Part shown: piece after piece, positions 2,946 to 55,356 of the stretch
Position numbering within the stretch: position 1 is the stretch's first letter
Layout: the number at the start of each line of letters is the position of its first letter
DNA from: Chiloscyllium plagiosum
Lineage: Eukaryota
Direction: 5' to 3'
Length of the DNA: 64,000 nucleotides
Assembly: GCF_004010195.1 (NCBI RefSeq)
Contig: NC_057751.1
Coordinates: forward strand, 15,118,597 to 15,182,596
The notes under the pieces: model-generated
What the model saw: only the letters and a program-made list of their open reading frames with translations
Database searches by the model: none
Told to the model about the DNA's origin: nothing
Translations under genes and position numbers: made by a program

Positions 2946-5897
2946 TAGAGTCATAGAGTTGTACAGCATGCAAACAGACCCTTCAATCCAACCTGTCCAT
3001 GCCAACCAGATATCCCAACCTAATCTAGTCTCACCTGCCAGCACCTGGCCCATATCCCTCCAAACCCTTTCCTATTCATATATCCATCCAAATGCCTTTT
3101 AAATGTTGCAATTGTACCAGCCTCCACCACATCCTCTGGCAGCTCATTCCATACCCGTAACATCCTCTGTGTGAAAAGGTTGCCCCTTAGATCTCTTTTA
3201 TATCTTTCCCCTCTCACCCTAAACCTATGCCCTCTAGTTCTGGACTCCCTGATCCCAGGTAAAAGAGTTTGGCTATTTACCCTATTCATGCCCCTCATAA
3301 TTTTGTAAACCTCCATAAGGTCACCCTTCAGCCTCCGACGCTCCAGGGAAAACAGCCCCAGCCTGTTCAGCCTCTCCCTATAGCTCAAATCTTTCAACTC
3401 TGGCAACATCCTTGTAAATCTTTTCTGAACTCTTTCAAGTTTCACAACATCTTTCTGATAGGAAGGAGACCAGAATTGCACGCAATATTCCAACAGTGGC
3501 CTAACCCAGGTCCTGTACAGCCGCAACATGACCTCCCAACTCCTGTATTCAATACTCTGACTAATAAAGGAAAGCATACCAAACGCCTTCTTCACTATCC
3601 TATCTACCTGCAACGAGCTATGAACCTGCGCTCCAAGGTCTCTTTGTTCAGCAACACTACCGAGGACCTTACCATTAAGTGTATAAATTCTGCTAAGATT
3701 TGCTTTCCCAAAATGCAGCACCTTGCATTTATCTGAAATAAACTCCATCTGCCACTTCTCAGCCCATTGGCCCATCTGGTCCAGATCCTGTTGTAATCTG
3801 AGGTAACCCTCTTCGCTGTCCACTACACCTCCAATTTTGGTGTTATCTGCAAACTTACGAACTGTACCTGTTATGCTCGCTTCCAAATCATTCATGTAAA
3901 TAACAAAAAGTAGAGGGCCCAGCACCGATCCTTGTGGCACTCCACTGGTCACAGGCCTCCAGTCTGAAAAACAACCCTCCACTACCACTCTCTGTCTTCT
4001 ACCTTTGAGCCAGTTCTGTATCCAAATGGCTCGTTCTCCGTGTTCCATGAAATCTAACCTTGCTAATCAGTCTCCCATGGGAAACCTTGTCGAACGCCTT
4101 ACTGAAGTCCATATAGATCACATCTACTGCTCTGCCCTCATCAATCCTCTTTGTTACTTCTTCAAAAAATTCAAGTTTGTGAGAAATGATTTCCCACGCA
4201 CAAGGCCATGTTGACGATCCCTAATCAGTCCTTGCCTTTCCAAATACATGTACATCCTGTCCCTCAGGATTCCCTCCAATAATTTGCCTACCACCAAGGT
4301 CAGGCTCACTGGTCTATAGTTCCCTGGCTTGTCCTTACCACCCTTCTTAAACAGTGGCACCACGTTTGCTAACCTCCAATCTTCCAGCATCTCACCTGTG
4401 ATTATTGATGATACAAATATCTCAGCAAGAGGGCAGCAATCACTTCTCTAGCTTCCCACAGAGTTCTCAGGTACGCCTGATCAGGTCCTGGGGATTTATC
4501 CACCTTTACCCGTTTCAAGGCATCCAGCACTTCTTCTTCTGTAATATGGACATTTTGCAAGATGTCACCATCTATTTCCCTGCAGTCTATATCTTCCATA
4601 TCCTTTTCCACAGTAAATATGATGCAAAATACTCATTTAGTATCTCCCCCATTTTCTGCGGCTCCACACAAAGGCCGCCTTGCTGATCTTTGAGGAGCCC
4701 TATTCTCTCCCCAGTTACACTTTTGTTCTTAATGCATTTGTAAAATCCCTTTGTATTTTCCTTAATTCTATTTGCCAAAGCCATCTCATGTCCCCTTTTT
4801 GCCCTTCTGATTTCCCTCTTAAGTATACTCCCACTTCCTTTATAAGGATTCACTCGATCTATCCTGTCTATACTCGGCATATGCTTCTTTCTTTTTCTTA
4901 ACCAAACCCTCAATTTCTTTAGTCATTCAGCATTCCATCTATCTACCAGCCTTTCCTTTCACCCTAACAGGAATATATTTTTTCTGGATTCTTGTTATTT
5001 CATTTCTGAAGGCTTCCCATTTTCCAGCCGTCCCTTTACCTGTGAACATCTGCCCCCAATCAGCTTTCGAAAGTTCTTGCCTAATCCCATCAAAATTTGC
5101 CTTTCTTCAATTTCAACTTCACCTTTTAGATCTCGTCTATCCTTTTCCATCACTATTTTAAATCTAATAGAATTGTGGTCGCTGGCCCCAAAGTGCTCCC
5201 CCACTGACACCTCAGTCACCTGCCCTGCCTTATTTCCCAAGAGTAGGTAAAGTTTTGCACCTTCCCGAGTAGGGACATCCACATACTGAATCAGAAAATT
5301 GTCTTGTGTGCACTTAGCAAATTCCTTTCCATCTAAACCTTTAACACTATGGCAGTCCCAGTCAATGTTTGGAAAGCTAAAATCCCCTACCATAACCACC
5401 CTATTATTTTTACAGATAGCTGAGATCTCCTTACAAGTGTGTTTCTCAGTTTCCCTCTGACTATTAAGAGGTCTATAAGACAATCCCAATAAGGTGATCA
5501 CCCCTTTCTTATTTCTCAGTTCCCCCCAAATAACTTCCCTGGATGTATTTCCGGGAATATCCTCCCTCAGCACAGCTGTAATGCTATCCCTTATCAAAAA
5601 TGCCACTTCTCTTCCTCTCTTGCCTCCCTTTCTATCCTTCCTGTAGCATTTGTATCCTGGAACATTAAGCTGCCAGTCCTGCCCATCCCTGAGCCATGTT
5701 TCTGTAATTGCTATGATATCCCGGTCCCATGTTCCTAACCATGCCCTAAGTTCATCCCTGTTAGACCCCTTGCATTGAAATAAATGGAGTTTAATTTATT
5801 TGTCCTACCTTGTCCCTGCCTGCCCTGACTGTTTGAGTCGCTTCTGTTTTCAACTGTACCAGTCTCAGATTGATCTCTTTCCTGACTATCTTCCTGG
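2946..5897 (-). mobile_element. CR1-type LINE, 5'-truncated, with disrupted ORF2 (APE endonuclease and reverse transcriptase)
   Basis: ORFs 3020-4048 (GVPQGSVLGP, KFADNTK), 4154-4390 (NYRPVSLT) and 4995-5606 (VGDF, SDH); ctctatgactcta-type 3' tail; several frameshifts. Confidence 0.93.
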
Positions 5898-5936: not shown

Positions 5937-8900
5937 GCTCACACTCTCCCTGCCAGTATATTTGTCCCCTTGCAATTTAGATGCAATCCGTCGTTCTTGT
6001 ACAGGTCACTTCTACCCCAAAAAAGATTCCAATGATGTGTATAATCCCTCTGTTTTCTCTCACCTGACTTCTTTTAGTATGTGCAGACTCGAATATTCAC
6101 GTTGAGTATTTTTACCATTTCTGTTGTCAGCACTTCAGCTGCTTTATAATCTTTTATCAAGGAATTTTTTTATTTATGGCATTTTTGCTTCATAGATATT
6201 TCTGATTATTTTGGAAAATCGGGCCAACTGTTTGTTGAACAAGAGAGACTTCTTAAAATTTATGATGACAGACATGTTCAGAGGAAACTGGTTCATGTTC
6301 TTGGTTCCAGAAATGTATTGTTGTTCACTTGCTTGACCAAAGATGTCTGTCAATCAAAAGTAAATGACCCAAAAATATATTTCAAACTCATTGCCAAATA
6401 AAGTCGGAAAGTAGTGGAAGATAAGCCATCATCTGTGGGGGAACAAGAACTAAAAATTACATGGTAAGATTTTAACATTGGTTGGAAACTAATGGACAGG
6501 CTTCCTGCTATAAATTCAATCTGATTTCCATTTAAATCATTGACAGCAAAGTAAGTGGATATATCATGAGTGGGTGAATTACTGTTGCCAGTTTTCAGTC
6601 TGTCAGTGCAGATGAAAATCAATCTGTCTGAATTTGGATTCGATAGTACTGAAGACTAAATGGTAAACACCTGGTATAGCAGTCTTCTAAAACTGCAAGT
6701 AGTTTTAATAACTTCAAATTGTATGGACTAGTGTGTTTCAAAAAGGGGAATGTTAGTCTTAAGGAGCAGCACTTGTACTAACTCATCAGGGAGCAGTACA
6801 ACACGGTTAGATACTGAGTGAAGCCTCAAACTCACATGAAATTCGAACTGTTTACAGAAAATGCTGGAAGTACTCAGCAGGTCCAGCAGTATCTGTGCTG
6901 AGAGAAAGAGAAGCAGAGTTAATATTTAATGTCTTTGATGGTTCATGAGAATGATGCTTCTGTTGTCAATTTTCAGCATTCCCAGTATTTTGCTTTGTAT
7001 GAGTGATACTTTTCAAGTTTCAAAGGTAGTTTGCTAAGTGAAATTGAAAATGAGTTCTTTACATGGAACAGTTTTATGCTGTAAACCTATGGCTGCAAGA
7101 AATATGACTACTGCTGCCTAAGCCCAATTCACCTGGGACCCTTACAACTAGTAGATAAAGGAGATTTTCAGTCATCAATCTGAGCTTGATTCAGGAATCA
7201 TTGATCCTCCAAGTGTATCAGCTAGCATTCTTGCTTAATTGTTTTTGAAATAGTAATGTGATGAGAGCCCAGAAGACTAACCTCTCTCTGTTTTGGTTTG
7301 AAAGGAATTGAAATTCATGTTACTTACAAGCCCACAGGCATGGAGATGATCTATGGAAAACATAAAAGAAAAAGTACATGCTCCCGGGAGAATTTCTTAT
7401 TTTGTTTATCTTGTTGGACGGGTTAAGAGAAGAAGGGAGGAGTGGCAGCCAAAGGATCAGTACAGCTGCTGGGATGCTTGAGGCTGTATCCATGTAAAGT
7501 GTGGATATAAATTTAACAAGGGTATTCCTAATTATGTATGTGCCACTGCTCGCCCACTGAAACTGTTGATTGTATGCCATGAATTACTGGAAGTGCTCAA
7601 TCTCACAGTAGATTCCTGTGTGCACTTCCTTTACACAATCATTCATCTATTTGTTTTCAAATTTACTTTAATCAGTGTTAAAAATGAGGAGTTTAGCACA
7701 AGAATTTTGAATGTACTTGGAAATGGAAGGTCTGTAGTGATTAAAATTTGAAAGAAAAAAATGGAAGCCTGCCAATCGTGAAGGGGCAGATTTGAGAAAA
7801 TTAGTGTTTTCTCTCACTTTTAGGCCCTTTGCGCTGTGATGGGCTTCTAGTTCACCTTTTCCCATCTTCTTTCAGTGCTTACTTTGAATTCCAAATGTAT
7901 ATAATTAAGGTCTTGAGCAATGTGCCTTTTGTGGAAAAGTTATTTATTTTCTACTTCATACTCTCTTCCAAACTTCCAAACAAAATAGCAAATTGACTGG
8001 AAACTGAACTGGACTGGCCCTATAAATCCTATGACTATAAGAGCAAGTCGAAGACTGGGAATTATGTGGCACATGACTCACTCCTAATTCCCCGAACCTA
8101 TCCACCATCCACAAGGCACAGACAAAGAGTGTGATGGAATACTTTTCATTTGAATCAGTGAAAGCAGCTGCAATAATAAACGAGAAGTTCAACTCCATCC
8201 AGGGCAAAACTTTCCATTTGATTAAGATCCTATGCACTCCTTTAAATATTTGCTACTGAAACACAGTGGCAGCAATTTCTGTACCATCCAGAAGAAGCAC
8301 TTTCTGTGACTCACCAAGAATTCTTCGAAGCCTGTGATTTCTCTCACATACAAAAGACAGACAGCACACGCACCAACACACCACACTCTTCAGCATATTT
8401 GAAATTTGTTTCATGTTGATTAAGAAGCCCTAAGGTTTTGCAGCAAATAAACTAGGAACAAGAGAAGACCACTCAATCATTTCAGCCAGCTCCATCATTC
8501 AGTAGGATCATATTTGATCTGAGTTTGACCTCAACGCTATACTCCTGTATATGACCAATAATTTTTCATCCCCTTGGTAATCAAGAACCTTTGCAATTTC
8601 CGCAAGTCTGCAGAGTTCTCCATCTGAGTCTAAGCCACAGATTTCCATTCTATATAATATTAATGCTATTGCAGGCATTCTGTCATAATTCTGTCCATTG
8701 GACTACCCGAGGAACACTCATCATTGAACATCAGGCAAAGAATGAAGAGCAAGCCACCTGCCTACCAGTTCTTGGAAAATGTAAGATTTCATTGATCCTG
8801 AGGGAACAGGATTTATATTGTAAAGTTGATGGAAGGCTGTAAACCTTAAATTTGTAACACTGCCAGTTAAATGTGCTTGCCACGTAAGTACGTAATAATT

Positions 8901-16166: not shown

Positions 16167-17409
16167 TAGAGCAGGCAGGTGAAAAGGGTGGGTATTGTGG
16201 TAATTAAGATGTAACTCAAAGGAGACATTTGGATAACTAAGGACATAAGCCTGAGAGCAGTTTATCTACTTCTTAGTAGTGATAAAGATTGACATACAAT
16301 ATGGGATGAAGGGTATACAATCTTTACCAAAATTTCTATGCCAGATTGAAACAAACGTAATTTGACTTTTGTGACACGAAAAACACCTCAACTGTATTTC
16401 AAAAGAATTGATAAACTAGGGTTCACTGCCACAATTAATTCCCAGAGCTATTGTGTGGTAAGGCATAGGTCCACTAGCTCCAAAACCTTAACCTGAGCTA
16501 CAATTCTTCTCAAAACTCGCTAGGAAGTAAAATGAGTTAAGTGTAGGGGATTCAATAATTAGGGATATGGATGACATAAAGGTTAGACAGTGAGGATAAA
16601 AATCCATTTTGTGGTCTATATTGGTACCTATCGCATAGAAAAGAATAGGTAAGTCTTTTCTGGAGAGAGCTGGGAGATAGTAGCTAACTTAAAGAGCAGG
16701 ACCTCAAGGGAATATTAAACTATGTGGAAATTGGTATAGGGATAAAATTTAAGGGGGGGGTGATCATGTGTCTGAAAGAGTGACAGAGGAAAGAAGGATT
16801 TCATTTCATGGGCGGCTTGTACTGGGACAAGGACGGTTGGTATTGTTGGCACATTCCTCACCTGTACTGGCCTTAGGATGAACAAAAATAAAGGGGAAAG
16901 TCGGGCAGAAACAACAATATAAATGACACTTCTAAAAATGGTGGGAGGGAAAAATGTGACAACTGCTGATATGATTCCAGATTTGGGTAGGGCTGCTTTC
17001 ATTGGGATGCACCTGAGGCTTTTTGAAGTAACTGGGGTGTAACCTGGAATAATGTGTGCAATTTTACTCTTAATCCCAGGAACAACGATCCCTCTAACTA
17101 CAATGTTCCTGTGTGTGTACAACCATTTCAAGGGTCTGAGTGTGGTGATTGGTTTGCAGCATTGGCTTCTGGGACCTGAAGTCACTGCCTCGCATGAACT
17201 TTTGAGATTTGTACAGAAGGTAAAAAATTAGCGGGAATGCTTATCAGGAAAGGTAACATTGCCTAAAGGCAGTGCGACAAAGATTCACCGCACTTACAGG
17301 AACAAGAGAGAAAAGGTTGGAGAAAGGTAAAGATGCACAGAAGATCAGAGAGAAAGCTGATGAAAACATTACAAAGAGAAAGGCCGAGTGTTGGGAAGTG
17401 GGAATAATG

Positions 17410-17930
17410 TCAATTTAGTGCATTCGCTGCTCCCAATGTGGTCTTCTGTAAACCGATGAAGACAAAGGGCAGACTGGGTCACTGCTTTGCAGAACAGGAA
17501 ATGTGTTGCTGGAAAAGCGCAGCAAGTCAGGCAGCATCCAGGGAACAGGAGAATCGACGTTTCGGGCATAAGCCCTTCTTCAGGGCTTATGCCCGAAACG
17601 TCGATTCTCCTGTTCCCTGGATGCTGCCTGACCTGCTGCGCTTTTCCAGCAAACATTTCCAGCTCTGATCTCCAGCATCTGCAGACCTCACTTTCTCCTC
17701 AAAGCTTTGCAGAACACCAATGTTCTCTGAAAAAATGACCCTGAGGTTCAGGTTCCCTGCCACTTCAACACACCACAGCACTTCCTCGTCCAACATTTCT
17801 ATCTTGGGCTTGCAGCAGTGTTCCAGCAAAGCTCATTGCAAGCTGGAACAATAATATCTTATCTTCTGCGTTGGGAATACTGCAGTCTTCAGGACTCAGG
17901 ATCGAATTAAAAAATTTTAGAGCCTGAATA
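17410..17930 (+). mobile_element. Fossil Penelope-like GIY-YIG endonuclease fragment, interrupted by a younger hairpin insertion
   Basis: Frameshifted translation CIRCSQCGLL*..KTKGRLGHCFAEH [insertion] ..CHFNTP..SNISILGLQQCSSKAHCKLEQ*YLIF..GILQSSGLRIELKNFRA*, resembling PLE endonucleases (C-x2-C..YIGET, HFN, GLN). Confidence 0.7.
17497..17703. mobile_element. Fold-back Penelope-derived mini-element (family A) with hammerhead core and 13 bp TSD
   Basis: About 80 bp near-perfect inverted arms turning at about 17583; gctttgcagaaca is duplicated at 17484-17496 and 17704-17716. Confidence 0.85.
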
Positions 17931-17952
17931 CCACCTTCCATGTCCTTCATCT

Positions 17953-18292
17953 GGGCAGCACAGTGGTTCACTGGTTGGCACTGCTGCCTCACAGTGCCAG
18001 GAACCCAGGTTCAATTCCACCCTTGGGTGACTGTCTGTATGGTGTTTGTACATTCTCGCCATATCTGCGTGGCTTTCTTCCGGGTGCTCTGGTTTCTTCC
18101 AGCAATCCAAAGTTGTGCAGGTTATGTGCATGTTATGTGCATTGGCCAGGCTAAATTGCCAATAGTGTCCAGGAATGTGCAGGTTAGGTGGACTAGCCAT
18201 GGATGTGTGGGGGGATCTGGTTTGGATGCCGTTCAGAGGGGCAGTATGGACTTGATGGGTTGAATGGCCTGTTTCCACACGTATAGATTCTG
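17953..18292 (+). mobile_element. HE1-like tRNA SINE, diverged
   Basis: gggcagcacagtggttcactggttggcactgctgcctcacagtgccaggaacccaggttcaattcc. Confidence 0.8.
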
Positions 18293-20005
18293 TGAGTTTT
18301 CGGGGGCTTCGGGCCATGGCAGCTGAAGACTCACCCAACAACATTACAATTAAACTCTGGGGTGCTCAAGCAGCCAGGGTTAAGGAGCTCAGATGCAGGG
18401 CTGGCCTTTATTTTGGAGCTTTAGATTACAAGAGGTTTGATTTTGTGCAGCAGCTGTATGTATAAAAGGTGCTAGAGGTTTGGCATTCTTCAAACAAAAA
18501 AGTAATTAAAATTCATTGCATGGTAGAACCAGCTCGAGGTGCTATGTGACCTACCCTTGATCCTGTTTCTTTCCTTTTTTCTTTTACTAAAGAGCATGCT
18601 GAATTGGTGTGAAGTATTGAATGTGGAGTCTCTTACCTTGTGAATTTTTTCACAAAAGGACAGGAAAGTCACGAGTAAAAATAATTCTTGGAAGATGATC
18701 ATGACTTCTGATACTAGCGATATAATACTGATTCTTTTTGTTTTGAAATGGAAAGTTGGAATATTGAATATTTGTGAAATGCCGATATGTTTATAGTTTT
18801 AGATAATCAGAACAATGCACCAACCTTTGTTCTTTCAATCAACATCTCTTTTCTTGGAAATCATTACTACACAGAATGATATTGAGATAGATGGTGAATT
18901 GCAGTTACCTCCTTGTAATATGGATGGAAACAGGGTGGTATGGGTTGTGGTTAATTTTGACTGAATAAAATTAAGAGGAAGATTATTAGTGGTTAGCCAG
19001 CTGCTGCCTTTTGTCTGTTTGGGATGAACCATCAGTTTGCAGTTTTGCATCTTTGAAGAGCTGGTTGCAGATTTTGCCTGAAGCTCTGGGAATGCCGGGC
19101 TACCGGACAGAAGTCTGCTTTTAAAAACCTGATTGAATGCTGTTTCCTTACTGGCATCAACATTCCATATTGCAGTCTTTGTTTGCCTACCTACCTGCTG
19201 GTAAGGTCTGACTCAATATTTTTCCAGAAATCCTTTCACTGACACTGCTTTGGAGACAGTGATGAGGAACCTAAGTGTTATTAAGTTTTGAACAATGGGA
19301 CCTTTGTAGGTTTTAATTTGCTCAGACCAAACCTCTTCCTTGCTAAAGTCTTAAGACATACTTTGTTAAATTAATTTCCTGGATTAAATCATCAAGTTCT
19401 GAATCACAATAGTAATTACTACAGTAATGACCACAAAATGCAGAATTAGTGTCTTTTGATAGCGGGATTTCCAATATTAAAACTAAGTGGAAGCATAAAT
19501 AAATCATTTATTAAAAAGGGAGTGTGCTCAGTACCTTTTTCAGTTCTCAAGCTATTGTCAAGAATTCCTTAAGTTTATTGAAGAGCTGAAGAATTTACCA
19601 GGTTTTCTCCCCATATTAATAAAACCATTTAGTCCTGCATCAAGATAATTTAAGCTGGTTCTGTAAATTATAGCACTTAGCACAGTCCTGCATTCTTCAG
19701 TCTGTTACACATAATCAGGACACATAGAGGGGAAAGGTCATCATTGATGGCAAATATCTGTTGTTCTCAAAATTCTAAAATGCTGTTGACATGTAGTATC
19801 TTCAGGTTTACTTAAGGGAATCACATACTTGCACTTCAATCAGCAAACGTCTTTTTGACTTCCCAGAAAAGACAGGACAGATTGAAGATCATTTATTGTT
19901 GCAATAAAGAGATCGCAAAGGACTTAAATATGATGTTTCATCAAGATAGTTTAGTTTACAAATTTGTTATTGCGTTGGGTGATATTTTTCCATGGCTTGC
20001 ACTAG

Positions 20006-20240
20006 TCATAGAATCCCGACAGTGTGGAAACAGGCCATTGGGCCCAACAATCTAACCTAGCCAATTCACCTAACTTGCACATCTTGGACTGTGGGAGGAA
20101 ACCAGAGCACCTGGAGGAAACTCACACAGACACAGGGAGAACGTGCAAACTCCACACAGACAGTTACCCGAGGCTGGAATTGAACCCGGGTCCCTGGTGC
20201 TGTGAGGTAGCAATGCTAACAGCTGAGTCATCATGTGACC
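20006..20240 (-). mobile_element. HE1-like tRNA SINE, internally deleted
   Basis: ggactgtgggaggaaaccagagcacctggaggaaactcacacagacacaggg...ggaattgaacccggg. Confidence 0.8.
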
Positions 20241-20771
20241 CTACCGTAAGGGTTTTGTCGTGAAATGGCCAATCAAGTGCTCAATTAATTATGACTTTAT
20301 ATGAGATATTTGGAATGGTGTTGAGAATGCCTCAAGCTCATTTTTCTTCTCCTCACTCGTGGGATATGAGCATCATTAGCTGGCCAGCATTTAGTGCTGT
20401 TCAGTAGTTGGTGGTAAAATGCCTTCTTGAACCACTGCAGTCCCTGAGCTGTGGATTAACCCATAATACCCCCAGGGAGGGAATTTTTTGACCCAGCAAC
20501 ATTGAAGGAATAGTGATATATTTCCAAGTAAGGATGGTGAGTGGCTTGGAGGGCAGTTTGCAAGAGGTGGTGTTCCCATGTTATCTGCTACTCTTATTCT
20601 TCTGGATGGAAAAGGTCATGGTCTAGAAGATGCTGTCTCAGACATCTTTGGTAAATTTCTGCAGTGCAGCTAGCTACTAGAGTGGTGGTGGTGGTGCTGG
20701 GCGTGGATGCTTGTGAGTGTGGTGCCAATCAGGTGGGCTGCTTTGTCTTCAATACTGTCAAGCTTTTGAGT

Positions 20772-20961
20772 TAAAAATCACACAACACCAGGTTATAGTC
20801 CAACAGATTTAATTTGAAGCACACTACTTTCGGAGCATCAGGTGGTATGAAGGAACGCGCTCCGAAAGCAAGTGTGCTTCCAGTTAAACCTGTTGGACTT
20901 TCACCTGGTGTTGTGTGATTTTTAACTTTGTGCACCCCAGTCCAACACCGACATCTCCAAA
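20772..20961. mobile_element. Fold-back mini-element (family B) with decayed hammerhead and about 14 bp TSD
   Basis: Inverted arms aaaatcacacaacaccagg...cctggtgttgtgtgatttt; TSD tcaagctt(t/c)tgagt at 20758-20771 and 20962-20975. Confidence 0.8.
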
Positions 20962-21047
20962 TCAAGCTTCTGAGTGTTGCTGGAGCTTTATCCAGGCAAG
21001 TGGGGAGTATTTCATCACACTCCTGATTTGTACTCTGTAGATGATAG

Positions 21048-21262
21048 CTGAAAATGTGTTGCTGGAAAAGCGCAGCAGGTCAGGCAGCATCCAGGGAACA
21101 GCAGAATCGACGTTTCGAGCATAAGCCCTTCTTCAGGAATGAAGAAGGGCTTATGCCCGAAACGTCGATTCTCCTGTTCCCTGGATGCTGCCTGACCTGC
21201 TGCGCTTTTCCAGCAACACATTTTCAGCTCTGATCTCCAGCATCTGCAGACCTCACTTTCTC
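21048..21262. mobile_element. Fold-back mini-element (family A) with hammerhead core and 15 bp TSD
   Basis: Near-perfect arms of about 85 bp; ctctgtagatgatag at 21033-21047 and 21263-21277; almost identical to the 17497 copy. Confidence 0.85.
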
Positions 21263-21347
21263 CTCTGTAGATGATAGACAGGCTTTGGGTAGGAAGTGAG
21301 TTCCTCGCTGTAGTATTCCCAGTCTGTCAACTGCACAGTTTTTATTT

Positions 21348-21885
21348 CATAGAGTCATTAGATATGCACAGCATGGAAGCAGACCCTTCGGTCCAATTTG
21401 TCTATGCTGACCAGATATCCTAAATTAATCTAGTTGTGTTGGACTCATATTTTTCTGAACCCTTCCTATTCATATACCCATTCAAATGTCTCTTAAATGT
21501 TGTAATTGTACTAGCCTCCACTACTTCCTTTGGCAGCTCATCCCATGCATGCACCACCCTCTGCATGAAAAAGGTGGTCCTTTTTAAATCTTTCCCCTTC
21601 ACCTTAAAACTATGCCTTCTAGTTCTGGACTCTCCCACCCAAGGGAAAAGACCTTGTCTGTTCAACCTATCCATGCCTCTCATGATTTTATAAACCTGTA
21701 TAATGTCACCCTTCAGCCTCCGACACTCCAGGGAAAATAGCCCCAGCCTATGCAGTCTTTCATATAACTCAAACTCTCCAAACCTAGCAAAATCCTTGTA
21801 AGTCTTTGCTGAACCTCTTCAGGTTTAATAACATCTTTCCTATCATAGGAAGATCAGAATTGAACACAGTAATCTAAAAGTTGCT
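21348..21885 (-). mobile_element. CR1 3' fragment
   Basis: ORF 21420-21683 (ESRTRRHSFKVKG..FFMQRVVHAWDELP). Confidence 0.85.
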
Positions 21886-24389
21886 GAAGAATAGTTACTG
21901 ACCTGACAGAAGCATGAGGAAAACAGGAGCTTTATTTTGGAAATACTCTCTTTTCGTTCCAGGTTGCCAGGAGGCTGCAAAAGAGCACAAGATCATGTGA
22001 CACTGCATCACTTCCTGTGATGTAGGCCATTTCACTGGCATACCACAGTGGAACTTAATCCCTTACACTACATGTCACCTACTTCCCCCAAAGTTTTGAC
22101 TCATAGATTACAATATAGTGCTTAGTATTGCAGTCCCCCTGGAAATATATATATATGTAAAACAATTACACAATCTTTTCAGAATAAATTAAAAATATAT
22201 CAGAAGGCAATATGACAGTTTAGCATCTCAGATGTGTGGGGCATGAGTAAGCCAATCAAGTACCACACGTGACCTTCACTTCAGAAAACTGGATTTCAAC
22301 ATTGCCAGAAGCCAGTCTCCTGTCTATATTTACCAGCTAATGTGTGTCTACCTTGCATCTCACTTACATAGAAAATCCCAAGGCAAAGCTTCCTGCAGGA
22401 CTAAGAGAGAGGTCATGGCAGCAATTGGTGCAACACCATCCTGAGCACTACCCACCACAAAATCGGAGCTTACAGTCAGGGTAGAACTGAGGGAGCATTT
22501 CATCTCATGCAAGACATAACATGGTTGTTTGAAACACTGTCTGATAAGGCTGCGCAACCCAAATCCCAAAAATGTTCCTTTTAAAAACATTAGCCTGCCC
22601 TATATCCTCCTCCTCCCTATATACACTGCACCAAGTTTCCCCTTTTGATAGCGGAGCGCTGACTGATTCTTGTCACATCCCACAAGCCGCAATTTCCTTG
22701 GGACTGGAGCAAAAGGTGGGGTGGGAGTGTGCAGCTGCGATGCTGCAGTAAGTCACCCGCCAACCCTGCTAGTCTGCTCAAGAAGAGCAGAATGGAAAAG
22801 AAGTTTTAGCTCACTCAGGCTGCTTCCTGTGATTGACATTGGGAATGGCAGCATTATGAGGTACTCATTGCTCATCCAGCTGAATGACTTCAGGCTAAAA
22901 ACTTGCCTTTCACCTCCCATCTGGGAGCTGTGACTGCAACTAGGAATAAGCTTTACAATTTTTGCAATGATCCATAAGAGGCTCGTCACAACCTTGTGGG
23001 TCACCTCGACCCTCTGAATTGGTTAAGCAATCACTCGAGGTGAGAAAACTTAGCAAAAACAAAAGCATTGGTAGCCTGACATGAGAAATGCTCTTCCAGC
23101 TAACTCCTCGCCCAAGTCCTCAGCAGAGCTTGCAGAACATTTCAAATTCTGTAGCGTTATCTCACAACTCTGCTTAAAGATACCCAAGTCAGCATTGTCA
23201 CAAAGATAGACTCAGAGCTAAAAACATCCCTGCGAATTTAGCACAGCTGTCCACAGAGAAGAGAATTATCAATATTGACTCAGAACCTCGGAATTTCAGC
23301 AATGAAGCCAGTAACACAGAAGCTTATATTTCTCTTGGAGAGAAGGGGTTGAGAAAAAGAGAGCTTGTCTTGTGTGTTTGGTAGAAACAGTTTCCCCAAG
23401 GATACAATGTTTACTTCAGAGTAATTTTTGTAATCTATTTTGAAATAAAGGTTTCAATGTAAGTACCCAATGTTATACATCTGAAGCCTATCTAGTCAGT
23501 ATAATTAGATGCAAAACATCTAATTTTTGGCAAAAAGCTTTTACCAAAGTAGCTCTGGTTTACTTTGCCCCACTCAGCCGTCCACTTTCCCTCCCTAATT
23601 TTTGAGCATCTTATCACTGATTGCCACAATACTGGTTGAACACACAATGCCAGAAAGACCAGTTGGCCTGGAAATGCCTTGGAAAAATTAACATCCAAGG
23701 CTTAGCCCATTTCCTCCATTCATTAGCTGGCATAAGGAACGGCTTTCAGATAAATGATTATGCGTGTACTGTAAGAGGACAGATCAGGAGCAAGAATCAG
23801 TGTGTTCAGGGTCTGAGAAACCCAGTTAGTTTGAGACTCCGGAATTGTACAAGAGCAACGCAAGCCAGTGTGGTTTCTCAGCATAAACCCTGAAACCCAG
23901 ATAAGTGCTAAATGCAGCAAGCCAGCATTTGGGTTGTTTGCACTATTTGAAAGACAGCTATGCACCAAAGGCTATTACTAAGATGGTTTTGTTTCCATGG
24001 ATAGAACCATGCGGAGCATAAATGAAGGGGGCAACCTGGAGTGAATGGAGCCTTCATGTTGGAATTTGACCTAGTTTCACCCATCACCTCGGACCATTGC
24101 GGGGAAATCTTCAACACAGCATAAAACTGGCCAACCACCCAATGCCAGAACTTTCCCTGTGACAAACCAAAAGAGACATTGTAACAAGCAGGTCTGGCAG
24201 TATGGAGAGAGAAACCAAATTATTCTTGAGCCCTGTGACCCTTCTTCAGACCTGAACTCAAAATGTTCACATTAACTCTGGTAGACTTGGTCCTCAGATT
24301 CTGGCAGATCTGCTAAGTCTCTCCAAAAGTTTCCACTGTTTTTGTTTGAGATCTCCAGCACCCGCATCCTTTGTTTTGTTTGTCACTCA

Positions 24390-32949: not shown

Positions 32950-35543
32950 GGGGAAAGCATGTGTTTCTTAAGAGAGAAGAGCTGAGCTGTATGATCAACT
33001 GGAGGGTCAGATGGTGTAAAATCTGTGTGGGTAGAATTGAAAGCAAAGATCATAGTTGGAGTTATGTACAGGCCTCCAAATACAAGTCAGGAGCTGGGGC
33101 GCAAGATACAGCAGCAGCAAAGGAAAGGCAAAGTTACAGTGATCATGGGGGATGTCAATATGCAGATGAACTGGGAAAATCAGGTTGGTAGTGGATTGCA
33201 TGAAAAGGAATGTATGGAATTCCACAAGATGACTTTTGGAGCAACTTGAGGTGCAGCCAACTAGGGAACAGGCAATACTTGATTTAGTGTTGAGAAATGA
33301 GACAGACTTGATAAGGGAGCTTAAGGTGAAGAAACCATTAGGAGGCAGTGATCATAATATGGTTCAATTTACTCTCAATTTGAGAGGGAGAAAATGGAAT
33401 CAGAGATTACGGTATTACAGCTGAATAAAGGCAACTGCAGAGCCATGAGGGAGGAGCTGGATAGAATTCACAGGGAGAGAAGCCTAGCAGGAAAGACAGT
33501 GGAATAGCAATGACCGGAGTTTCTGGGAGTAATTCAGGAGACACAGCAGAGATTCATCCCAAGGGAAAAAAAGCATGGTAAAGGGAGAATGAGCTGAAAA
33601 ATGTGTTGCTGGAAAAGCGCAGCAGGTCAGGCAGCATCCAAGGAGCAGGAGAATCGACNNNNNNNNNNNNNNNNNNNNNNNNNNNNNNNNNNNNNNNNNN
33701 NNNNNNNNNNNNNNNNNNNNNNNNNNNNNNNNNNNNNNNNNNNNNNNNNNNNNNNNNNNNNNNNNNNNNNNNNNNNNNNNNNNNNNNNNNNNNNNNNNNN
33801 NNNNNNNNNNNNNNNNNNNNNNNNNNNNNNNNNNNNNNNNNNNNNNNNNNNNNNNNNNNNNNNNNNNNNNNNNNNNNNNNNNNNNNNNNNNNNNNNNNNN
33901 NNNNNNNNNNNNNNNNNNNNNNNNNNNNNNNNNNNNNNNNNNNNNNNNNNNNNNNNNNNNNNNNNNNNNNNNNNNNNNNNNNNNNNNNNNNNNNNNNNNN
34001 NNNNNNNNNNNNNNNNNNNNNNNNNNNNNNNNNNACACCCCAGAGTTCTAAGGGAGATAGCTGAAGAGATAGCAGATGCATTAATGATGGTGTTTCAGGA
34101 ATTGCTAGAATCACGGAGGGTCCAAGAGGACTGGAAAATCGCTAATATGACATCCATGTTTATAAAAGGGGGTAAGGCAAAAGACCGAAAATTACAGACT
34201 TATTAGCCAAACCTCAATCGTGGGTAAGACTCTGGAATCTATTGTTCGGGTTGAGATGTCTGATTTCTTGGAAGTGTATCGTCAAGAAGGGCAAAGTCAG
34301 CACGGTTTCATCAATGGGAAATCATGCCTGACAAATCTGTTAGAATTCTTTGAGGAAGTCATGAGCAGGTTAGACCAAGGAGAGCCAATGAATGTTATCT
34401 CTCTGGACTTCGTGTGCTGCACACGAAGCTACTAGCTAGATAGGGCCCGTGGTGTCAGAGACATGGATGTAAGCTTGGCTGTCTGGCAAAAAGCAGAGAG
34501 TGGGGATAAAAGGGTCCTTTTCAGAATGGCAGCTGGTAACAAGTGGTGTTCCACCAGGCTCAGTTTTGGGACCACAATTTTTCACTTTGTACATTCGCCA
34601 TCGAGATGAAGGAACTGAGGGCATTCTGGTTAAGTTTGCAGATGATACAAAGGTAGGTAGAGGGGCAGGTAGCATTTAGGAGGCAGGGAAGCTGCAGAAG
34701 GATTTAGATAGGTGAGGAGAGTGGGCAAAGAAGTGGCGGATGGAGGACAATGTGGGTAAGTGTGAGGTCATGCACTTTGGTACAGAGAATAGAGGACTAT
34801 TTTCTAAATGGGGAGAAAATTCAGAAGTCTTAAGTGCAAAGACACTTGGGAGTTCTCGTCCAGGATTCTCTCCACGTAAACTTGCAGGTTGAGTCAGTAA
34901 TTAGGAAGGCAAATGCAATGATGGCATTTATTTTGAGAGGACTTGAATATCAAAGTAGGGATGTACTTCTGAGGCTCGAGAAGGCTCTGGTCAGACCACA
35001 TTTGGAGTATTGTGCACAGTTTTGGGCCCCATATCACAGGAAGGATGTACTTGTCTTAGAATGTGTTTAGAGAAGTTTCACAAGAATAGGCCAGGAATGA
35101 AAAGCTTAACGTATGAGAAACATTTGAGGATCCTGTGTTTATAGTCTGAGTTTAGAAGGAAGAGTGGGAATCTAATTAAAACATACAGAATATTGAATGG
35201 CCTGGACAGAGTAGATGTTGGGAAGATGTTTCCATTGCTAGGAGAGACACGGACCCAAGGGCACAGCCTTAGCGTTAAGGGAAGACCTTTCAGAATGAAG
35301 GTAAGGAGAAACTTTTTCATCCAGAGTGGTGAATTCATGGAATTCATTGGCACAGAAGGCCGTGGAGGTCAGATCATTGAATACATTTAAATCTGAAATA
35401 TTTAGGTTTTTAAATTTCAAAGGGATCAAGGGTTCCGGGGAGACAGCGGGAGAATGGGGTTGAGAAACTTATCAGCCGTGATTGAATGGCAGACTTGATG
35501 GGCTGAATGGCCTAATTTCTGCTCCTGTGTCTTATGGTCTTAA
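32950..35543 (+). mobile_element. CR1 LINE ORF2 remnant (APE and RT), with a nested family-A arm at about 33592-33658 and an assembly gap at 33659-34034
   Basis: VGVMYRPP, MGD.N, ILDLVL, GSDH, QHGFINGKSCLTNLLEFFEEV, RPHLEYCAQFWAP; tail tcttatggtcttaag. Confidence 0.9.
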
Positions 35544-37698
35544 GGATTCTATAAGATTGACTTGGGGGGGTAGACTGGGATATCTGAACTTAATGGATTT
35601 CTCTTGAATTCTTAAATATTATCATTCCTTCGTAAAAGATTGCACTGTCAGCTTGGTCGAGAGGAAATATTTAGGTGGATCCGATGAAGAGCAATCAGGC
35701 AAAAGATTTCAAGAGGCTACTATGTAAGCTGTAGGCATTAAAGTTGGTCTGTGGAAAGCAAGCGATGAGGAGGAGTTTGGGACAGGGGAACCCACAACTT
35801 CCACTGTGATGAATATTCATGATCTGCGGATTTGTATATTTTCGGACCTGTGGAAAGAAATGCTGACCCCCAACCCCAACCCCCCCCCCCAACATGTAGT
35901 TCCAAAAAACTTTGAAATGGTAAATCATTTGAGCATTGCCACAAAAGCATTGAAATTGAAAGTGTCTGAAAGGATCTGCAGTTGTCCTGATTATACTCAG
36001 TGGTAACTTTTGCTTCCTGATAAGCTATTTTGAGTGGGCTTTGTTTAAAAAAACGGTCCTTTGAAGTTTGTAATTGGACTTTTGTATCTTTATTTCTGTC
36101 TGTGTTTTTGATACTGTGCCTCTCACTTTGTAAGAGATACTGTTACTATTTCAGTGGGAAAGTGATTCAGAAAAAAGTCGAACAGGAATACTTATAAATA
36201 AATAACCTCTAGACAAAAATATTTCCAGTGGAGCTTTAAACATTTGCTATATTACAGATTCCTCTTTCATGTTACACATTGGTCAGTGAAGATCAACGTG
36301 AAGAACAATCACAAAGACTTTGTGTGAACTGTTTTGTAAAGTCCATATTGTTCATTTCATGGTAAAAGAGGAATTCCATTGACTGAATTGAATCGGGTTA
36401 GTGGGAACATTTTTGAATGAGCACAGTGGCTTCAACTCACTTGAGTAAGCAAAATACTGTGGATACTGGAAATCTAAAATGAAATAAGGGTGGTGCAGGA
36501 ATGTAGCAGTTCTGGCAGCAATAGTGGAGAGAGAAACAGTGTTAACATTTCAAGTCCAGTGTGACTCTTCTTCAGAAGGAAAATGAAATCATACTGGACT
36601 GAAAATGTTAAATCTGGTTGCCAGACCTGCTGGGTTTCTCCAGGAGATTTGTTTTGGCTTTAACTTACTGTTAAATTGCAAGATCAAGTTGCATGTTAGT
36701 TTGCAATGCAACTCATTTTTGCAATGAGTTCAGAGCTATGAGGTGGATTTCAACACTTTAATATGCATTGCATTTGTTTCTTTTCATTGTTAGAATGTTA
36801 CTGTATTTTAATGTATGACTTGTCAAATTTGCATATCAACAGCCATGTCTTGACAATGAAAACTAACATTGTTAATGTTCAACATAAAAGAACATAAAAA
36901 TTACATGAGCACACTCAAAACTATCAAAGCAGATATAAAGAGTGAAGCATTTATTGACTGATCTTGAACAATTTATTTATGCCGTGATACATTTTCTGTT
37001 TGGAAGACGTATGCAAGAGAAGACTGGAATAAGCAACTACTTCTGACTATTTTTAAAAGTTCTTCCTCATTGGGGTTGTCCTTGCCCACTCTGCAATTTT
37101 CATCTGTTCTGTATTAATATATTTTACAAACCTACCTCAGGGTTCTCCTGATTCAAGACCACTTGCACATCAGGTTCCAGAGCCATTTTCCACTGAGTTG
37201 TCGCATGCCACGACTTCCCTGTGACTTTGATGACCTTTCTGCATTTGATTGCAAAGAATCACATGGGGAGACTTCACTCACAAAAGTGCAGCATTGCTAC
37301 TTATGGAAATCTCATTTACTTTACTGTGTTGTGGTTGCCCTGTTGATCAAATAATGACACTCTGTCCTTTTAATTGACTTTGTCTGAGTGAAAGAGTGGT
37401 GGGTTTGGAATGTGCCAAGGTAATTGCAGAGACCATAATGGGCATTTCTTATTTTGTGCTTCCACGGCAGTTCTGAGGAAGGGTCACTGGACGTGAAATA
37501 TTAACTCAGCTTTCTCTGCACAGATGCTTTCAGACCTGCTGAGCTTTTCCAGCAATTTCTGTTTTTGTTTTCAGAAAGTGGTGTTCTGTGCTGTGATACA
37601 CATGTGCTTGGCAAAATCAGCTTACTCCTGTATTCTATTATCATCTCTTGAACCATGGTGTTTTGCTAACTCTTTGTTTGCGCTTTCTTTTTCAACAG

Positions 37699-43879: not shown

Positions 43880-46800
43880 AAAAAAAAGGTTCTGTGCGCC
43901 GGATTGGTAAATTAACGAGTTTTTTTTCTTTATTTTTCTGCAGTCTCTTTGGGAATTTAGAATAGTGGAAATGATGGTTCGGGCAGTTGAATGTTCCAAC
44001 TGCGGAGCGTGGGAGGAAGGTCACCACCTATGTCTCTGCTGATTTCCTCTGCGGGAAATGCACCCAGCTCCAGCTCCTCTCAAACCCCTTTAGGGAACTA
44101 GAGCTGGACCTGGATGAACTTCAGATCATTCGGGAGGCGGAGGGGGCTAATGAGAGGGGTTACAGGAAGATAGTCACACCTCAGATGCAACAAAAAGGCA
44201 GATGGATTACAGTCAGGGGACAGAAAAGAAACCAGCAGGCAGTGCAGGGAGCCCCTGTGGTGGTTCCCTTCAATAATAAGTTTACCATTTTTGATACTGT
44301 TGGGGAGGCATGACTTACCAGGGTAAGCTATGGGGTACAGTTCTCTGGCACAGAGTTGCTGTATCCCTGTTGCTCAGAAGGGAAGGGGGGAGAAGAGCAG
44401 AGCATCAATCACTGGGGACTCCATAGTTAGGAGTCAGATAGGAGGTTCTGTGGGAATGAGAGAGACTCACAGTTGGTGTATGTCTTGGATCGTGTTTTCG
44501 GGATTCTTGACGGGGAAGGGGAGCAGCCCCAAGTTGTTGTCCACATAGGCACTAATGACATAGGTCGGAAAAGGGATGGGGATTTAAGCCAGAAATTCAG
44601 GGAGCTAGTGTGGAAGCTTAGTGCTGGAACAAACAGAGTTGTTATCTCTGGTTTGTTGCCCGTGCCACGTACTTGCGAGGTGAGAAATAGGGAGAGAGAG
44701 GAGTTGAACATATGGCTACAGGGATGGTGCAGGAGGGAGGATTTCAGATACCGGGATAACTGGGGCTCATTCTTAGATAGGTGGGACCTCTACAAACAGG
44801 ATGGTCTACACCTGAACCAGAGGGGTACAAATATCTTGGGGGGGGCTGGGGGGTGCGTTTGCAAATGCCCTTCAGGAGGGTTTAAGCTAATTTAGCAGGG
44901 GGATGAGAACCTAAATTGTAGTTCCAGCGTCCAGGAGGTTGACAGTAGTGAGATCAGAAATTTCAAGGTTGCACGAGTTCACTGGAAAGCAGGAAGGTGG
45001 TTTGAAGTGTGTCTACTTCAACGCCAGGAGCATCCAGAATAAGGTGGGTGAACTTGCAGCATGGGTTGTACCTGAGACTTCGATACTGTGGCCATTTTGG
45101 AGACATGTATGGAGCAGCGACAGGAATGGTTGTTGCTGGTTCTGGGATTTAGATGGTTCAGTAAGAATAGAGAAGGTGGTCATGCAGGGGGATGTGTGGC
45201 ATTGTTCGTCAAGGACAGTGGTACAGGGACAGGCAGGATGTGTGATGAGGACTCATCTACTGAGGTTGTATGGGTTGAATTCAGAAACAGGAAAGGAGAG
45301 GTCACCCTGTTGGGAGTTTTCTATCGACCTCCGAACAGTTCCAGAGATGAAGAGGATAGGATTGCAAAGATAATTCTGGATAGGAGCAAGAGTAACAGGA
45401 TAGCTGTATTGGGGGACTTTAACTTTCCAGATATTGACTGGATATCCTGTAGTTTGAGTACTTTAGATGGGTCAGTGTTTGTTCAATGTGTGCATGATGG
45501 TTTCCTGAGAGAGTGTGTAGACAAGCCGATAAGGAGCGAAGCCCTGTTGGATTTGGTACTGAGTAATGAACCTGGCCAGGTCTTCAATTTGGAGGTAGGT
45601 GAGCACTTTGGTGATAGTGACCACAATTTGATTATGTTGACTTTTGCGATGGAAAGGGATTGGTATAATACCGCAGGGCAAGAGTAAGAGATGGGGGAAA
45701 GGGAATTATGATGAGAATCGGCAAGATTTCGGATGCACAGGATAGAGAAGGAAACTGAAGGGGATGGGCACAATTGAAATATTTAAGGAACAGCTACTGT
45801 GTGTCCTTGATAAGTATGTTCCGGTCAGGCAGGGAGGAAGTGGTCGAGCGAGGGAGCCATGGATTACTAAAGACGTTTAATCTTTTGTCAAGAGAAAGAA
45901 GAAGGCTTATGTTAGAATGAGACGTGAAGGCTCAGTTTGGGCGCTTGAGAGTCACAAGTTAGCTGGGAAAGACCTAAAGAGAGAGCTAAGAAGAGCCAGG
46001 AGGGGACATGAGAAGTCGTTGTTAGATAGGATCAAGGAACACCCCAAAGCTTTCTTTCGGTATATCAGGAATAAAAGAATGACGAGAGAAAGATTAGGAC
46101 CAATCAAGAATAGTAATGGAAAGTTGTGTGTGGGGTGGGAGGCGATTGGGAAACACTAAATGGATATTTTTCATCAGTGTTCACTCTAGAAAAAGACAAT
46201 GTTGTCGAGGACAGCACTGAGATACAGGCTACTAGACTAGACGGGATTGAGGTTCACGAGAAGATGTAAGCAATTCTGAAAAGTGTGAAAAAAATGTCCC
46301 TGGGCCAGATGGGATTTGTCCTCAGATTCTCTGGGAAGCCTGGGAGGAGATTGCAGAGCCTTTGGCTTTGATCTTTATATTGTTATTATCTACAGGAAAA
46401 GTGCCAGAGAACTGGAAGATAGCAAATATTATCCCCTTGTTCAAGAAGGGTCATCTGATTCCTGATGAAGGGCGTTTGCCCGAAATGTCGATTTCGCTGC
46501 TCCTTGGATGCTGCCTGAACTGCTGTGCTCTTCCAGCACCACTAATCCAGAATCTGGTTTCTAGCATCTGCAGTCGTTGTTTTTACCTCTGTTGTAATTA
46601 TAGACCAGTGAGCCTTACTTTGGTTGTGGGTAAAGTGTTGGAAAAGGTTATAAGAAATAGGATTTATAATCATCTAGAAAGAAATAAGTTGATTAGGGAT
46701 AGTCATCAACACGGTTTTGTGAAGGGTACGTCGTGCCTCACGAACCTTATTGAGTTCTTTGAGATGGTGACCAAATAGATGGATGAGGGTAAAGCAATTG

Positions 46801-51949: not shown

Positions 51950-54890
51950 AGTAACCCAGAAGATTGTAATCTTTGTGCCAAAGATTGGAAGCAGAATCGC
52001 AAAGAAGTATGGACTTCTTGGACTGCAGATCCATGCTGCGCTGTGTCCAGACTTTGCAGCTTTATTCACCCATGATTGATGTGTCAGGTATTCCAGAGCT
52101 TTGTCTTCTCTGAAACACAGTTTTGAGAAAGTATTTCTTTCTTTGCTCATAGCTTTTTGGTTTCAACAAAAATAAAAACATTGCGTTCATAACTGCTCAC
52201 TAATTTATTATTGCCTTCAATCAAAAAACTTTTCTGGTTAGATAAACAAGGTAGTTGCGAAAAGGGATTTCAGCACCTTGATTATAAAGATACCAGATTG
52301 TTTTCAAAGCATTGGATGTTTTAACTGTCTATGCACTCAACGTGAATAAAGCCCATAAATAAGTTGTTTTTGTTGATATTTTTAGACTTTTTTTTAAACA
52401 TCTTATAACAATTAAAATATTTCAGAGTTGAGTGAAGAGCTCTGACACTTACTAATCATGGCATAGGCAATGGTAATCTTGAACTTAATTCAAGAAGTGG
52501 AAATCTTTTTAATATTCACGCATTATCCCATTTGCTTCCTCGTGGCGGGAAACTAATATTGTGTTGCTCAGCAGTTAAAATTACAGTTTGCCACTAATTG
52601 GCCAATAATGTGAAAGAGTGTTCCCTGAAGGGATTCCAAAGGATTGCAGGTGTTGTATTAAATAATGTTAAAACATCAATAAACTTGTTAACTAATTTAT
52701 GTCATGTTTTAACAAAATGTAATATATTCATGTACATAACTTAAGAAATTTCAACCGACCTTGCAGGTAACTGAGTAAAAATATCACTGCCTTTGTATGA
52801 AAATTATTTCCATTGGTTTCTGTAACTTCTTAAATGATGACATTGAAACTGAATTTCCGAACTGGTATTGCCATATTTTGCCAGCATATGATGCAAGATA
52901 CTAAGCATTGCCTCATCTAATCATGGTTTCTTATTTTACCTCATTCTATATGTCTCCAGTAGATCCAGATGTCTTTGTGTCACAATGTTTTGTCTCCATT
53001 TGTTAGAGTGTAGTATTGCATCTCTCACTTTTCTTATCTTCGATCTGGATCCTTAGTACATTGACCTAGACACTCCTCATCCAACCTTCATTCCCACTTA
53101 TCACCATCTCTTATCCAACACATAGTTACCATAAAGTCAATGGTAGATAAGGAATGTAGGGTAGATAAGGAAACTTTTCCGAACAGAAAGACCTTTTGAG
53201 GCTGATTGTCTACTGCAAAGACAAATTGAAGAAGTTGGAACAGAAGATGGCTGAGAGGCAGTTTGATAGAGCTTTTCAATGTCATGAGTGAGCTGATGGG
53301 GAAAAGAAGCAAGGGTAACATATAAACAATGTTTTCACTTCGCAAAAGTTAGGAAATAGGCTGCACTGCCTGGAGGTGTGTTGGAGGCAAGTTCAAGAGA
53401 CATTCAAGAAGGCCTTTCATGATTATTTGGATTTAAATGGTGTGTTGGGATATGAGGAAAAGACAGGATTGATAATGATAGTAATTACTTGCTAATGATG
53501 CTCATTTTAAAAAATGGTGCAGGCACAGTGGGCCAAATGGTCACCTTTTATGTCACAGCAATTTTGTGAATGATTTACTCTGTTCTTCTACTTTACCCAA
53601 CTTCTGAATTGTCTGGCACAGAAACCTGCAGGAGCAGAGTGCATTTTTGTGATCTTGATTTCCCAGCCATCCTGACTAACTCACGAGCATGATTTTCTCT
53701 CGAATTCTGCATCTGGAGGACTGAATCTTAAAATTTACTCCACATCCTTGTGAATAGCTGATCCTCTCCATGAAATTCAAAGCAAATAATGGAAGTGTTT
53801 TGTTCTGTCTTCAGTTTACTTTTTTTAAATGTTGTTTTCTTACCTTCCTTACTTACCAGGACTTGTCAAAGATGCTGGCTCAGCTTGGGGCACTTAGCCA
53901 TGTGATCATATCAGTTGTGCTTAAATATTGCTTGAATGCAAGAACAAGAAGCAAGAATAAGCCTCTCGGCCCTTCGAGTCTGCTCTGCTATTCAATAAAA
54001 TCATGGCTAATTGGATTTTAACCTCAACTCTATGTTCCCTCATATCCTTCATAATATTTCAACCCCTTGGTAATAAAGAATCTACAAACCTTTGATTTAA
54101 ACATATTTAAAAATTCTGCAGCCACTGCATATTGAGGGAAAAAAAACTCGTAAGACTCTCAATCCTCTGCAAGAAAAGCATTTCCTCATCTCTATTTTAA
54201 AGGGTTATGGGCAGAAAGCAGGAAAGTGAAGTTGGGAGGTTCTCAGATCCGCCATGGTCTAATTGAATGGTGGAGCAGACTCAGTGAGTTGAGTGACCAA
54301 CTTCTGCAATGTCTTATGGTCTTAATTGAGCAAACTCCTAATTTTAAACTATGGCCTCTAGCTCTAGATTCTCCCTCAAGAGGAAACATCCTTTCAAAAT
54401 TGACCCTGTCAATTCCCTCACAATAAAATATAACATTCTATAAAGCATCCTGATTACTGACTTTATCTGTACACTAACCTTCTGCAGTTCATGAATTAAG
54501 ACACCCAGTCTTCTCTGCATCTCAATTCATCTTGGCACATGTTTCTGCTGGCAACTGAATTGGCGATAGTGTACAATTCTAGTCCTTAAAATGGGCTCAA
54601 AGTACTGTGTCAAAATGAATTAGATGTTCTGTTTGACTCTCTCATGTCATTCAATTGTCAGCCTGTTCCATGACTCCGTGTGAGAGTAATGAATCATACT
54701 TTAGTTGTAATGGAGCAGGGCAGAAGTAAGTGCTGGCTATTGTGATGGGAGGATTGTGAAACACTTTTAAAGGATATAAAAATAATCCATCCAGACTTGG
54801 TTTCCATGAACCATGTAGTTGGGGTCCCGTGTTAAGATTTTGGAACTGCAAGCACTGAGGCAGCAAAGGTTGCTATATAACTTAGACTAA

Positions 54891-55120
54891 AGAGGCAAAA
54901 CGTGTTGTGCTGGAAAAGCACAGCCCCTCAGGCAGCATCCAAGAAGCAGGAGAGTCGACATTTCAAATATAAGCTCTTCAACAGGAATGAAGAGCTGATG
55001 AAGAGCTTATACTTGAAACGTCAACTCTGCTGTTCCTCGGATGCTGCCTGATCAGCTGTACTTTTCCAGCACCGCACGTTTTGACTCTGATCTCCAGCAT
55101 CTGCAGTCCTCATTTTCTCC
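54891..55120. mobile_element. Older fold-back mini-element (family A) with hammerhead core and about 12 bp TSD
   Basis: Diverged inverted arms; CTGATGA-AGAGC..GAAACGTC at 54995-55022; TSD aactt(a/g)gactaa at 54879-54890 and 55121-55132. Confidence 0.8.
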
Positions 55121-55356
55121 AACTTGGACTAAGGACCATGTCAGTGATTGGGTGTTTTTCTAACGGTGAATATGGTGTGACAGAACGATCTTTGAGGCCC
55201 GATGCCTGATGTGAGAAACATCCGTGCAGTTTAAACAATCCCACCCTGCCCCAACCTTTCTCCACCCCAAACTCTTCTCGTTCTCTCCTGCAAAAAGCAT
55301 AATATGTGAACCTGGTCTTATTCTCACCTAATGGTCACAGTTTCCAAAGAGGCTTA

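Follow-up and report, generated by a model that had tools for sequence, protein, structure and literature searches.

A head-to-head pair of truncated, hammerhead-bearing repeat ends in Chiloscyllium plagiosum, probably a Penelope-like stub assembled at its insertion site

The stretch of Chiloscyllium plagiosum DNA analysed here (the window, 64 kb) contains the last three exons of the DNA polymerase beta gene on the plus strand, at 37699-37763, ~43140-43270 and ~57774-57869, identified by Pfam match and motif scans. Scans with short motifs revealed no earlier exon of this gene in the window; the insert under study, at 17497-17703, is therefore probably located within a long intron upstream of these exons, read on the plus strand. 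A Dickkopf-family C-terminal exon (~61711-61970, minus strand) lies tail to tail with the polymerase beta gene. Decayed LINEs with endonuclease and reverse transcriptase (RT) domains are present at 44431-47580 (plus strand) and 3020-5795 (minus strand), the former with a GDSL-esterase ORF as well and host to one copy of the repeat family described below. That family has 11 related loci in the window, approximately one per 6 kb, and its copies are spaced at least 3.5 kb apart.

The insert is 207 bp long and lies between exact 13-bp direct repeats, a target-site duplication (TSD) with a rough chance probability of 2.5e-5 (Table 1). Its arms (17497-17576 and 17582-17660; 80 and 79 bp) are arranged head to head and differ by one substitution and one indel. 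Only the right arm carries a tail, of 40 nt (17661-17700), which is followed by AAA. These measurements agree with an earlier note made from the sequence alone, which had described an insert of ~205 bp with arms of ~80 bp, a tail of ~45 bp and a perfect 13-bp TSD. Two copies of a single short repeat end, each truncated differently, make up the insert and overlap by 3 nt (AGG) at its centre. The whole insert was predicted to fold into a single long hairpin (-174 kcal/mol, z -22.6). In the RNA of a single arm, CAGCAUC of the tail was predicted to pair with GAUGCUG of the body; this body-to-tail helix encloses the internal 3′ end in six aligned copies, and its predicted pairs hardly vary.

Table 1. 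Features of the 17497 insert and of related copies in the window
Feature	Position	Strand	Description
Left TSD	17484..17496	+	13 bp; exact match to 17704-17716; single-copy in the empty-site contig of a related species
Tail-less arm	17497..17584	-	element sense is minus; contains the whole hammerhead core; stops at the internal 3′ end point
Minimal hammerhead core	17551..17584	-	CUGANGA at 17583-17577, extra A, 4-bp stem II, GAAA, ACGU palindrome, GUC
Fold-back centre	17577..17584		5-nt loop plus 3-nt overlap AGG (17582-17584) common to both arms
Tail-bearing arm	17582..17660	+	element sense is plus; 5′-truncated at stem II, hence without CUGANGA
Tail	17661..17703	+	40 nt plus AAA
Right TSD	17704..17716	+	
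Sister fold-back	21033..21277		15-bp TSD; different centre (4-nt loop; arm extends to ATTCC)
Tail-less arm of another copy	33591..33658	-	remainder inside N gap 33659-34034
Single-arm copy	46452..46590	+	full core, both stem I strands, tail, no TSD; within LINE
Older fold-back	54879..55132		12-bp TSD with one mismatch; third type of centre

A contig from a related species (X13 record 9) connects 17226-17496 to 17724-17905 through nine intervening letters, compared with seven expected for an empty site with one TSD copy. The evidence for an empty site is this one contig, judged by the length of its nine joining letters. In its left piece 12 of 271 bases differ from the window; the two arms of the insert differ at 2 of 80. 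The 17497 insertion is therefore younger than the split between the two species, or still polymorphic. Of the recent activity that the earlier note had read from near-identical copies at 17497 and 21048, this relative youth (or polymorphism) and a 98% likeness of the right arms are what stands.

The same note had listed related copies at 21048, 33592, 46451 and 54891. All four belong to the family, and a fold-back was confirmed for 21048 and 54891 only. The copy at 46451 is a single arm with a tail and not a fold-back, 77% like the 17497 arm and without a TSD. At 33592 one arm is visible, followed by an N gap. The gap begins inside the family arm, at the hammerhead, and the hairpin may have broken the assembly there. 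Six older relatives were found beyond the earlier list (6862-6893, 24187-24380, 36490-36660, 37464-37575, 49912-50056 and 56144-56364). Several of these have a longer stem II, carry U where cleavage would occur and show compensatory changes in their stems; three resemble fold-backs. A TSD search at five older copies gave just 6-9-bp repeats, which is chance level. Three single-arm copies, which represent different subfamilies, were compared over 300 bases of upstream DNA, and no shared sequence was found.

The minus strand of 17551-17584 had been read as a complete minimal hammerhead core. The core is as proposed, with a predicted cut after 17556, but the ribozyme is incomplete, the 5′ strand of stem I being absent. 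Because this strand is cut off, only 1 bp of stem I is possible in the 17497 copy (C2.1-G1.1, with a probability of 2e-31 in the whole insert). In the fold-back, GAAGA of the hammerhead core itself forms the loop, and the predicted pairing probability of stem II was 3e-13 in the whole insert versus 0.997 in the isolated arm. The plus strand of this copy, probably the transcribed one, has no CUGANGA at all. In the copies where stem I is present (21048 and 46451), its third pair is a U-U mismatch. The hammerhead of the 17497 copy is thus predicted to be inactive, with stem I missing and the motif buried by the 80-bp hairpin.

A relaxed descriptor of the hammerhead core gave six matches in the window, five of them in the repeat family; 50 shuffles gave a mean of 0.5 and a maximum of 3. 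The sixth match, at 424 on the minus strand, lies outside the family and is within chance expectation. When 10 arms from 8 loci were aligned, 82% of the cells were paired, compared with 18-38% when the alignment was slid. Compensatory changes across copies were seen: 5 of the 10 hammerhead pairs change on both sides among 10 rows that are related to one another, a count reached by 29 of 500 shuffles. This stem covariation lends moderate support to a real hammerhead across subfamilies. The Rfam hammerhead search proposed in the same note gave no match at gathering score in the window; in 17400-21400 and 46380-46640 there was none even at E values up to 10. Matches to Rfam microRNA families lay far below the gathering score and were rejected; they merely reflect the long hairpin.

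Two traits of the core, an additional base following A9 and a palindrome at 15.2-16.2, fit minimal hammerheads of metazoan Penelope-like elements (PLEs), with which the shark motif also shares the position of that base (between 9 and 10.1), the G10.1-C11.1 pair and the short helix I (PMC4209133). Dispersed minimal hammerheads and opposite-strand pairs, described there as truncated PLEs, are likewise found in the shark family (PMC4209133). Stem II has 4 bp in the shark copies, versus 7-8 bp in Schistosoma (PMC4209133), and the 17497 copy differs from the metazoan PLE hammerheads in having lost stem I. One supplement file of PMC4209133 contained no shark terms.

Four contig runs were placed on 17200-18000 (58,570-64,731 contigs, with depth nearly all on repeats). 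Among the best 15 of 658 joints, 12 depart from the inverted arm at 17581-17584 and re-enter at 17619-17677. On a single-arm reference (21139-21265), the joints listed connect the front edge at 21140 to 21140, 21146, 21147 and 21228, and those listed with intervening letters, often ending in TTCC, connect 21140 to 21169-21251. The joint from 21140 to 21147 reached a depth of 256 in one contig, versus ~15 on the unique flank. Tail-to-head joints were absent from the best 15 of 16 joints and from the best 12 of 48 joints with letters between; both sets are the best-supported ones, and perfect palindromes may be under-represented in contigs.

Loose 3′ ends occur at 21224 (165 reads in X21, the RNA run described below; 169 contigs in X5) and at 21262-21264 (at least 785 reads and at least 836 contigs), giving two alternative 3′ ends ~40 nt apart. 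The tail-less arms of all four window copies end within 8 nt of one another. The 5′ edge clusters at the front of the hammerhead; in the sequencing runs, one arm mostly reaches it, and the other is cut at many places. Loose ends beyond ATTCC agree at just 0.4-0.54.

Fold-back points and TSD lengths of the window copies, whose tabulation the earlier note had proposed, both vary. The centres are all different in the three readable family fold-backs (17497, 21048 and 54891), and 17497 and 21048 differ in centre and outer ends although their right arms are so alike. TSD lengths are 13, 15 and 12 bp (the last with one mismatch), with none at 46451. The hairpin is probably not the mobile unit. The earlier proposal of a non-autonomous, retrozyme-like "mobile hairpin system" was not upheld: joints vary, no tail-to-head tandem occurs among the joints listed, and the ends lie off the cleavage site.

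Raw reads from a polyA single-cell run (X21, ~2% of the run) were matched to 21139-21265, and 2459 were obtained. Of these, 91% continue into unlike sequence, and both orientations are present. No pile-up of read starts or ends was listed among them, including at the predicted cut after 21166, which is a weak test. The reads look like passengers in host transcripts. For 17200-18000 itself, no RNA data set was listed that contains it.

These reads also carry an A-to-G signal. Counted in one sample, with reads pooled over loci and duplicates included, A-to-G changes were found at 8 of 24 A positions in X21 (5% listing threshold), versus 2 in the unmatched contigs of X5. All eight sites were higher in reads with the first mate on the minus strand; in most stranded libraries such reads represent sense RNA. 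The median log2 odds ratio for this strand bias was 1.8, versus 0.15 for 22 other changes (Mann-Whitney p 1e-6, with sites treated as independent). The core GAAA (21160-21162) was read as G in 7.5, 11 and 13% of minus-first-mate reads, in ~2% of other reads and, by depth, in 0.2-0.5% of X5 contigs. The mirror T-to-C change was clear at one of six listed sites; the 5% threshold may hide this signal on the minor strand. At 21217, 21219 and 21221 other changes were also enriched in RNA, on both strands; thus, a bias toward expressed loci exists. Site 21233 is a tail position that also varies between subfamilies. The A-to-G signal was absent from X8 contigs.

We put the probability at about 0.75 that the insert is a dead-on-arrival Penelope-like stub whose hairpin was probably assembled at this insertion and not copied as a unit. 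In layout it matches an endonuclease-positive Penelope-like insertion; four of five defining features were found, and membership is likely. Published Penelope-like insertions have an inverted 5′-truncated pLTR, a 30-40-bp tail at one end, and TSDs of 8-10 bp or none (PMC3846280, PMC8557442). The earlier view of the locus as Penelope-like in anatomy, with a minimal hammerhead, and not as a MITE is borne out by the one-sided tail, the variable TSD and the inverted 5′-truncated arm. Its claim of Penelope derivation gains from the insertion layout and the hammerhead features; however, no Penelope ORF tied to the repeat was found among 76 of the 88 window ORFs. The search for an ORF with RT and GIY-YIG domains gave no GIY-YIG match in these 76, and the other 12 overlap N runs. 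Short Penelope protein motifs gave nothing convincing in six frames of the window. One frame is open across arm and tail (21143-21265, plus strand; 41 codons, ATG at 21185), which would suit the beginning of an ORF. Protein searches with this frame gave no match, which is weak evidence from so short a query. Family sequence patterns had no match in collections of metagenomes, viruses and prokaryotes, the outcome to be expected of an animal repeat.

We propose that the element's GIY-YIG nuclease would cut both target strands 12-15 bp apart, and that both cut strands would prime reverse transcription on element RNA in its uncleaved form, one of them at the end of the tail and the other at an internal pre-tail site. 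One copy would run as far as a fixed 5′ boundary immediately ahead of CUGANGA, most likely where the RNA starts; the other would stop earlier, and the two cDNA ends would join via ~3 nt of microhomology. The hammerhead would be inherited from a master element. Copies would then be transcribed passively in host RNA and form double-stranded RNA, a likely ADAR substrate. On the single-arm reference, the consensus of loose ends before the core ends in CCTCATTCC, which we take to fit the initiator pattern YYANWYY with +1 at the A at which the copies end; the chance of a match at a given spot is ~1 in 128. The start of the RNA is the most likely meaning of this fixed 5′ edge, an RT stall at the ribozyme being the alternative.

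Part of this scheme has a counterpart in Poseidon of Anolis carolinensis, whose protein cuts and extends both strands in vitro, starting at two sites that bracket the tail on uncleaved RNA; its ribozyme cuts solely with the protein present (PMC11167929). The shark family resembles it in having two 3′ ends that bracket the tail, ~80-120 nt downstream of stem II, with a presumably uncleaved template, and in having no RNA read that ends at the cut site (PMC11167929). Two shark features, the head-to-head products and the fixed 5′ edge, are absent from the available part of the Poseidon description (PMC11167929). Some points stand against assembly at the insertion site. High-depth recurrent joints are also expected from secondary copying of hairpins; at the old 56144 copy the longer arm is the tail-bearing one; and PMC11167929 saw no strand difference in start site, so that the asymmetry of tails does not follow from it. 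Neither a shark description nor a twin-priming model of Penelope was found in the literature searched, which lay outside subscription journals and Repbase.

A further parallel is provided by Pen2/Pen2a of Adineta vaga, in which a head-to-head 5′-truncated repeat, a palindromic joint, a 30-40-bp tail at one end, a variable or missing TSD and an empty site are likewise described (PMC3846280, PMC8557442). The shark copies differ from Pen2/Pen2a in consisting of the repeat end alone (~200 bp, no ORF), in their longer TSDs (12-15 bp) and in their density (~11 loci in 64 kb).

A different origin for such hairpins, proposed in PMC3846280 and PMC8557442, is self-priming (snap-back) on an antisense template or first cDNA of a Penelope element, with nuclease trimming of one tail afterwards. 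The native end can indeed self-fold, AGG pairing with CCT over a loop of 5 nt exactly as at the 17497 centre, and RNA reads come from both strands. A lone snap-back is nevertheless insufficient, because the second arm has a tail that the first arm lacks. Joints whose second arm begins far downstream or in the tail (17663-17677; 21239 and 21251) also lack a symmetric centre, and the 8-nt zone in which the tail-less ends of all four window copies fall looks like a start site rather than a trimmed end. We regard this origin as unlikely. Still less probable is that the hairpin moves in its entirety as a retrozyme-like or SINE-like non-autonomous unit, transcribed as such and then re-inserted by a Penelope RT. 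Mobilisation in trans through pLTR sequence has been described (PMC3846280), some centres recur, and the closeness of the 17497 and 21048 right arms would also suit such a unit. The differing centres and outer ends of these same two copies argue against it, however, as do the hundreds of distinct joints in the runs, the missing tail-to-head joint among the best 15 of 16, and the 91% of placed RNA reads that run on into unlike sequence with no start or end pile-up among those listed.

The hallmark of a MITE is fixed terminal inverted repeats with a fixed short TSD. A palindromic DNA transposon of this kind, with a hammerhead-like string present by chance, would account for the long inverted arms, and frog has palindromic DNA repeats of ~200 bp (PMC5625713). 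This reading conflicts with TSDs that vary from 12 to 15 bp, a tail on one side only, copies with a single arm, uneven termini and hammerhead stems that covary; it is already largely refuted and has the smallest probability of those weighed here. We also rejected a retrozyme, since the window copies are not direct tandem units with a complete hammerhead each and their ends are not set by ribozyme cleavage; the core-bearing arms span the predicted cut site. Non-LTR retrozymes, reported in one chondrichthyan, share with the shark copies a non-coding nature, a type I hammerhead and a relation to Penelope; they form direct tandem repeats with a complete ribozyme per unit and circular RNA, whereas the shark copies are dispersed, inverted and truncated (PMC7229834; 10.64898/2026.07.22.740005).

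The strand-biased A-to-G signal resembles ADAR editing of the repeat family, and we treat it as a lead. Heavy editing has been published for Penelope, named as such in lizard, and for a palindromic repeat (Harbinger) in frog (PMC5625713). The shark hairpins have in common with these a ~200-bp self-folding repeat as putative double-stranded substrate (PMC5625713). In contrast to frog Harbinger, the shark palindrome was probably made by a retrotransposon, and the signal is a strand-biased A-to-G in one run over pooled loci. It is possible, if on balance doubtful, that the assembly mechanism and the editing belong together, such that the resulting self-folding hairpins would be the shark counterpart of inverted Alus, a main ADAR substrate, and editing would hit the ribozyme GAAA.

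As an element, the insert is an ordinary stub of a known retrotransposon class with a published layout. The origin of the inverted repeats and tails of Penelope-like elements is described as open in PMC8557442; the many copies that are short, young and readable at their ends could test double priming versus snap-back by counting alone. Such stubs mislead annotation, being taken for MITEs, microRNA hairpins or retrozymes, and they may cause assembly gaps. If the A-to-G signal is true, cartilaginous fish would, as published for lizard Penelope and frog Harbinger, have in these stubs an abundant source of double-stranded RNA.
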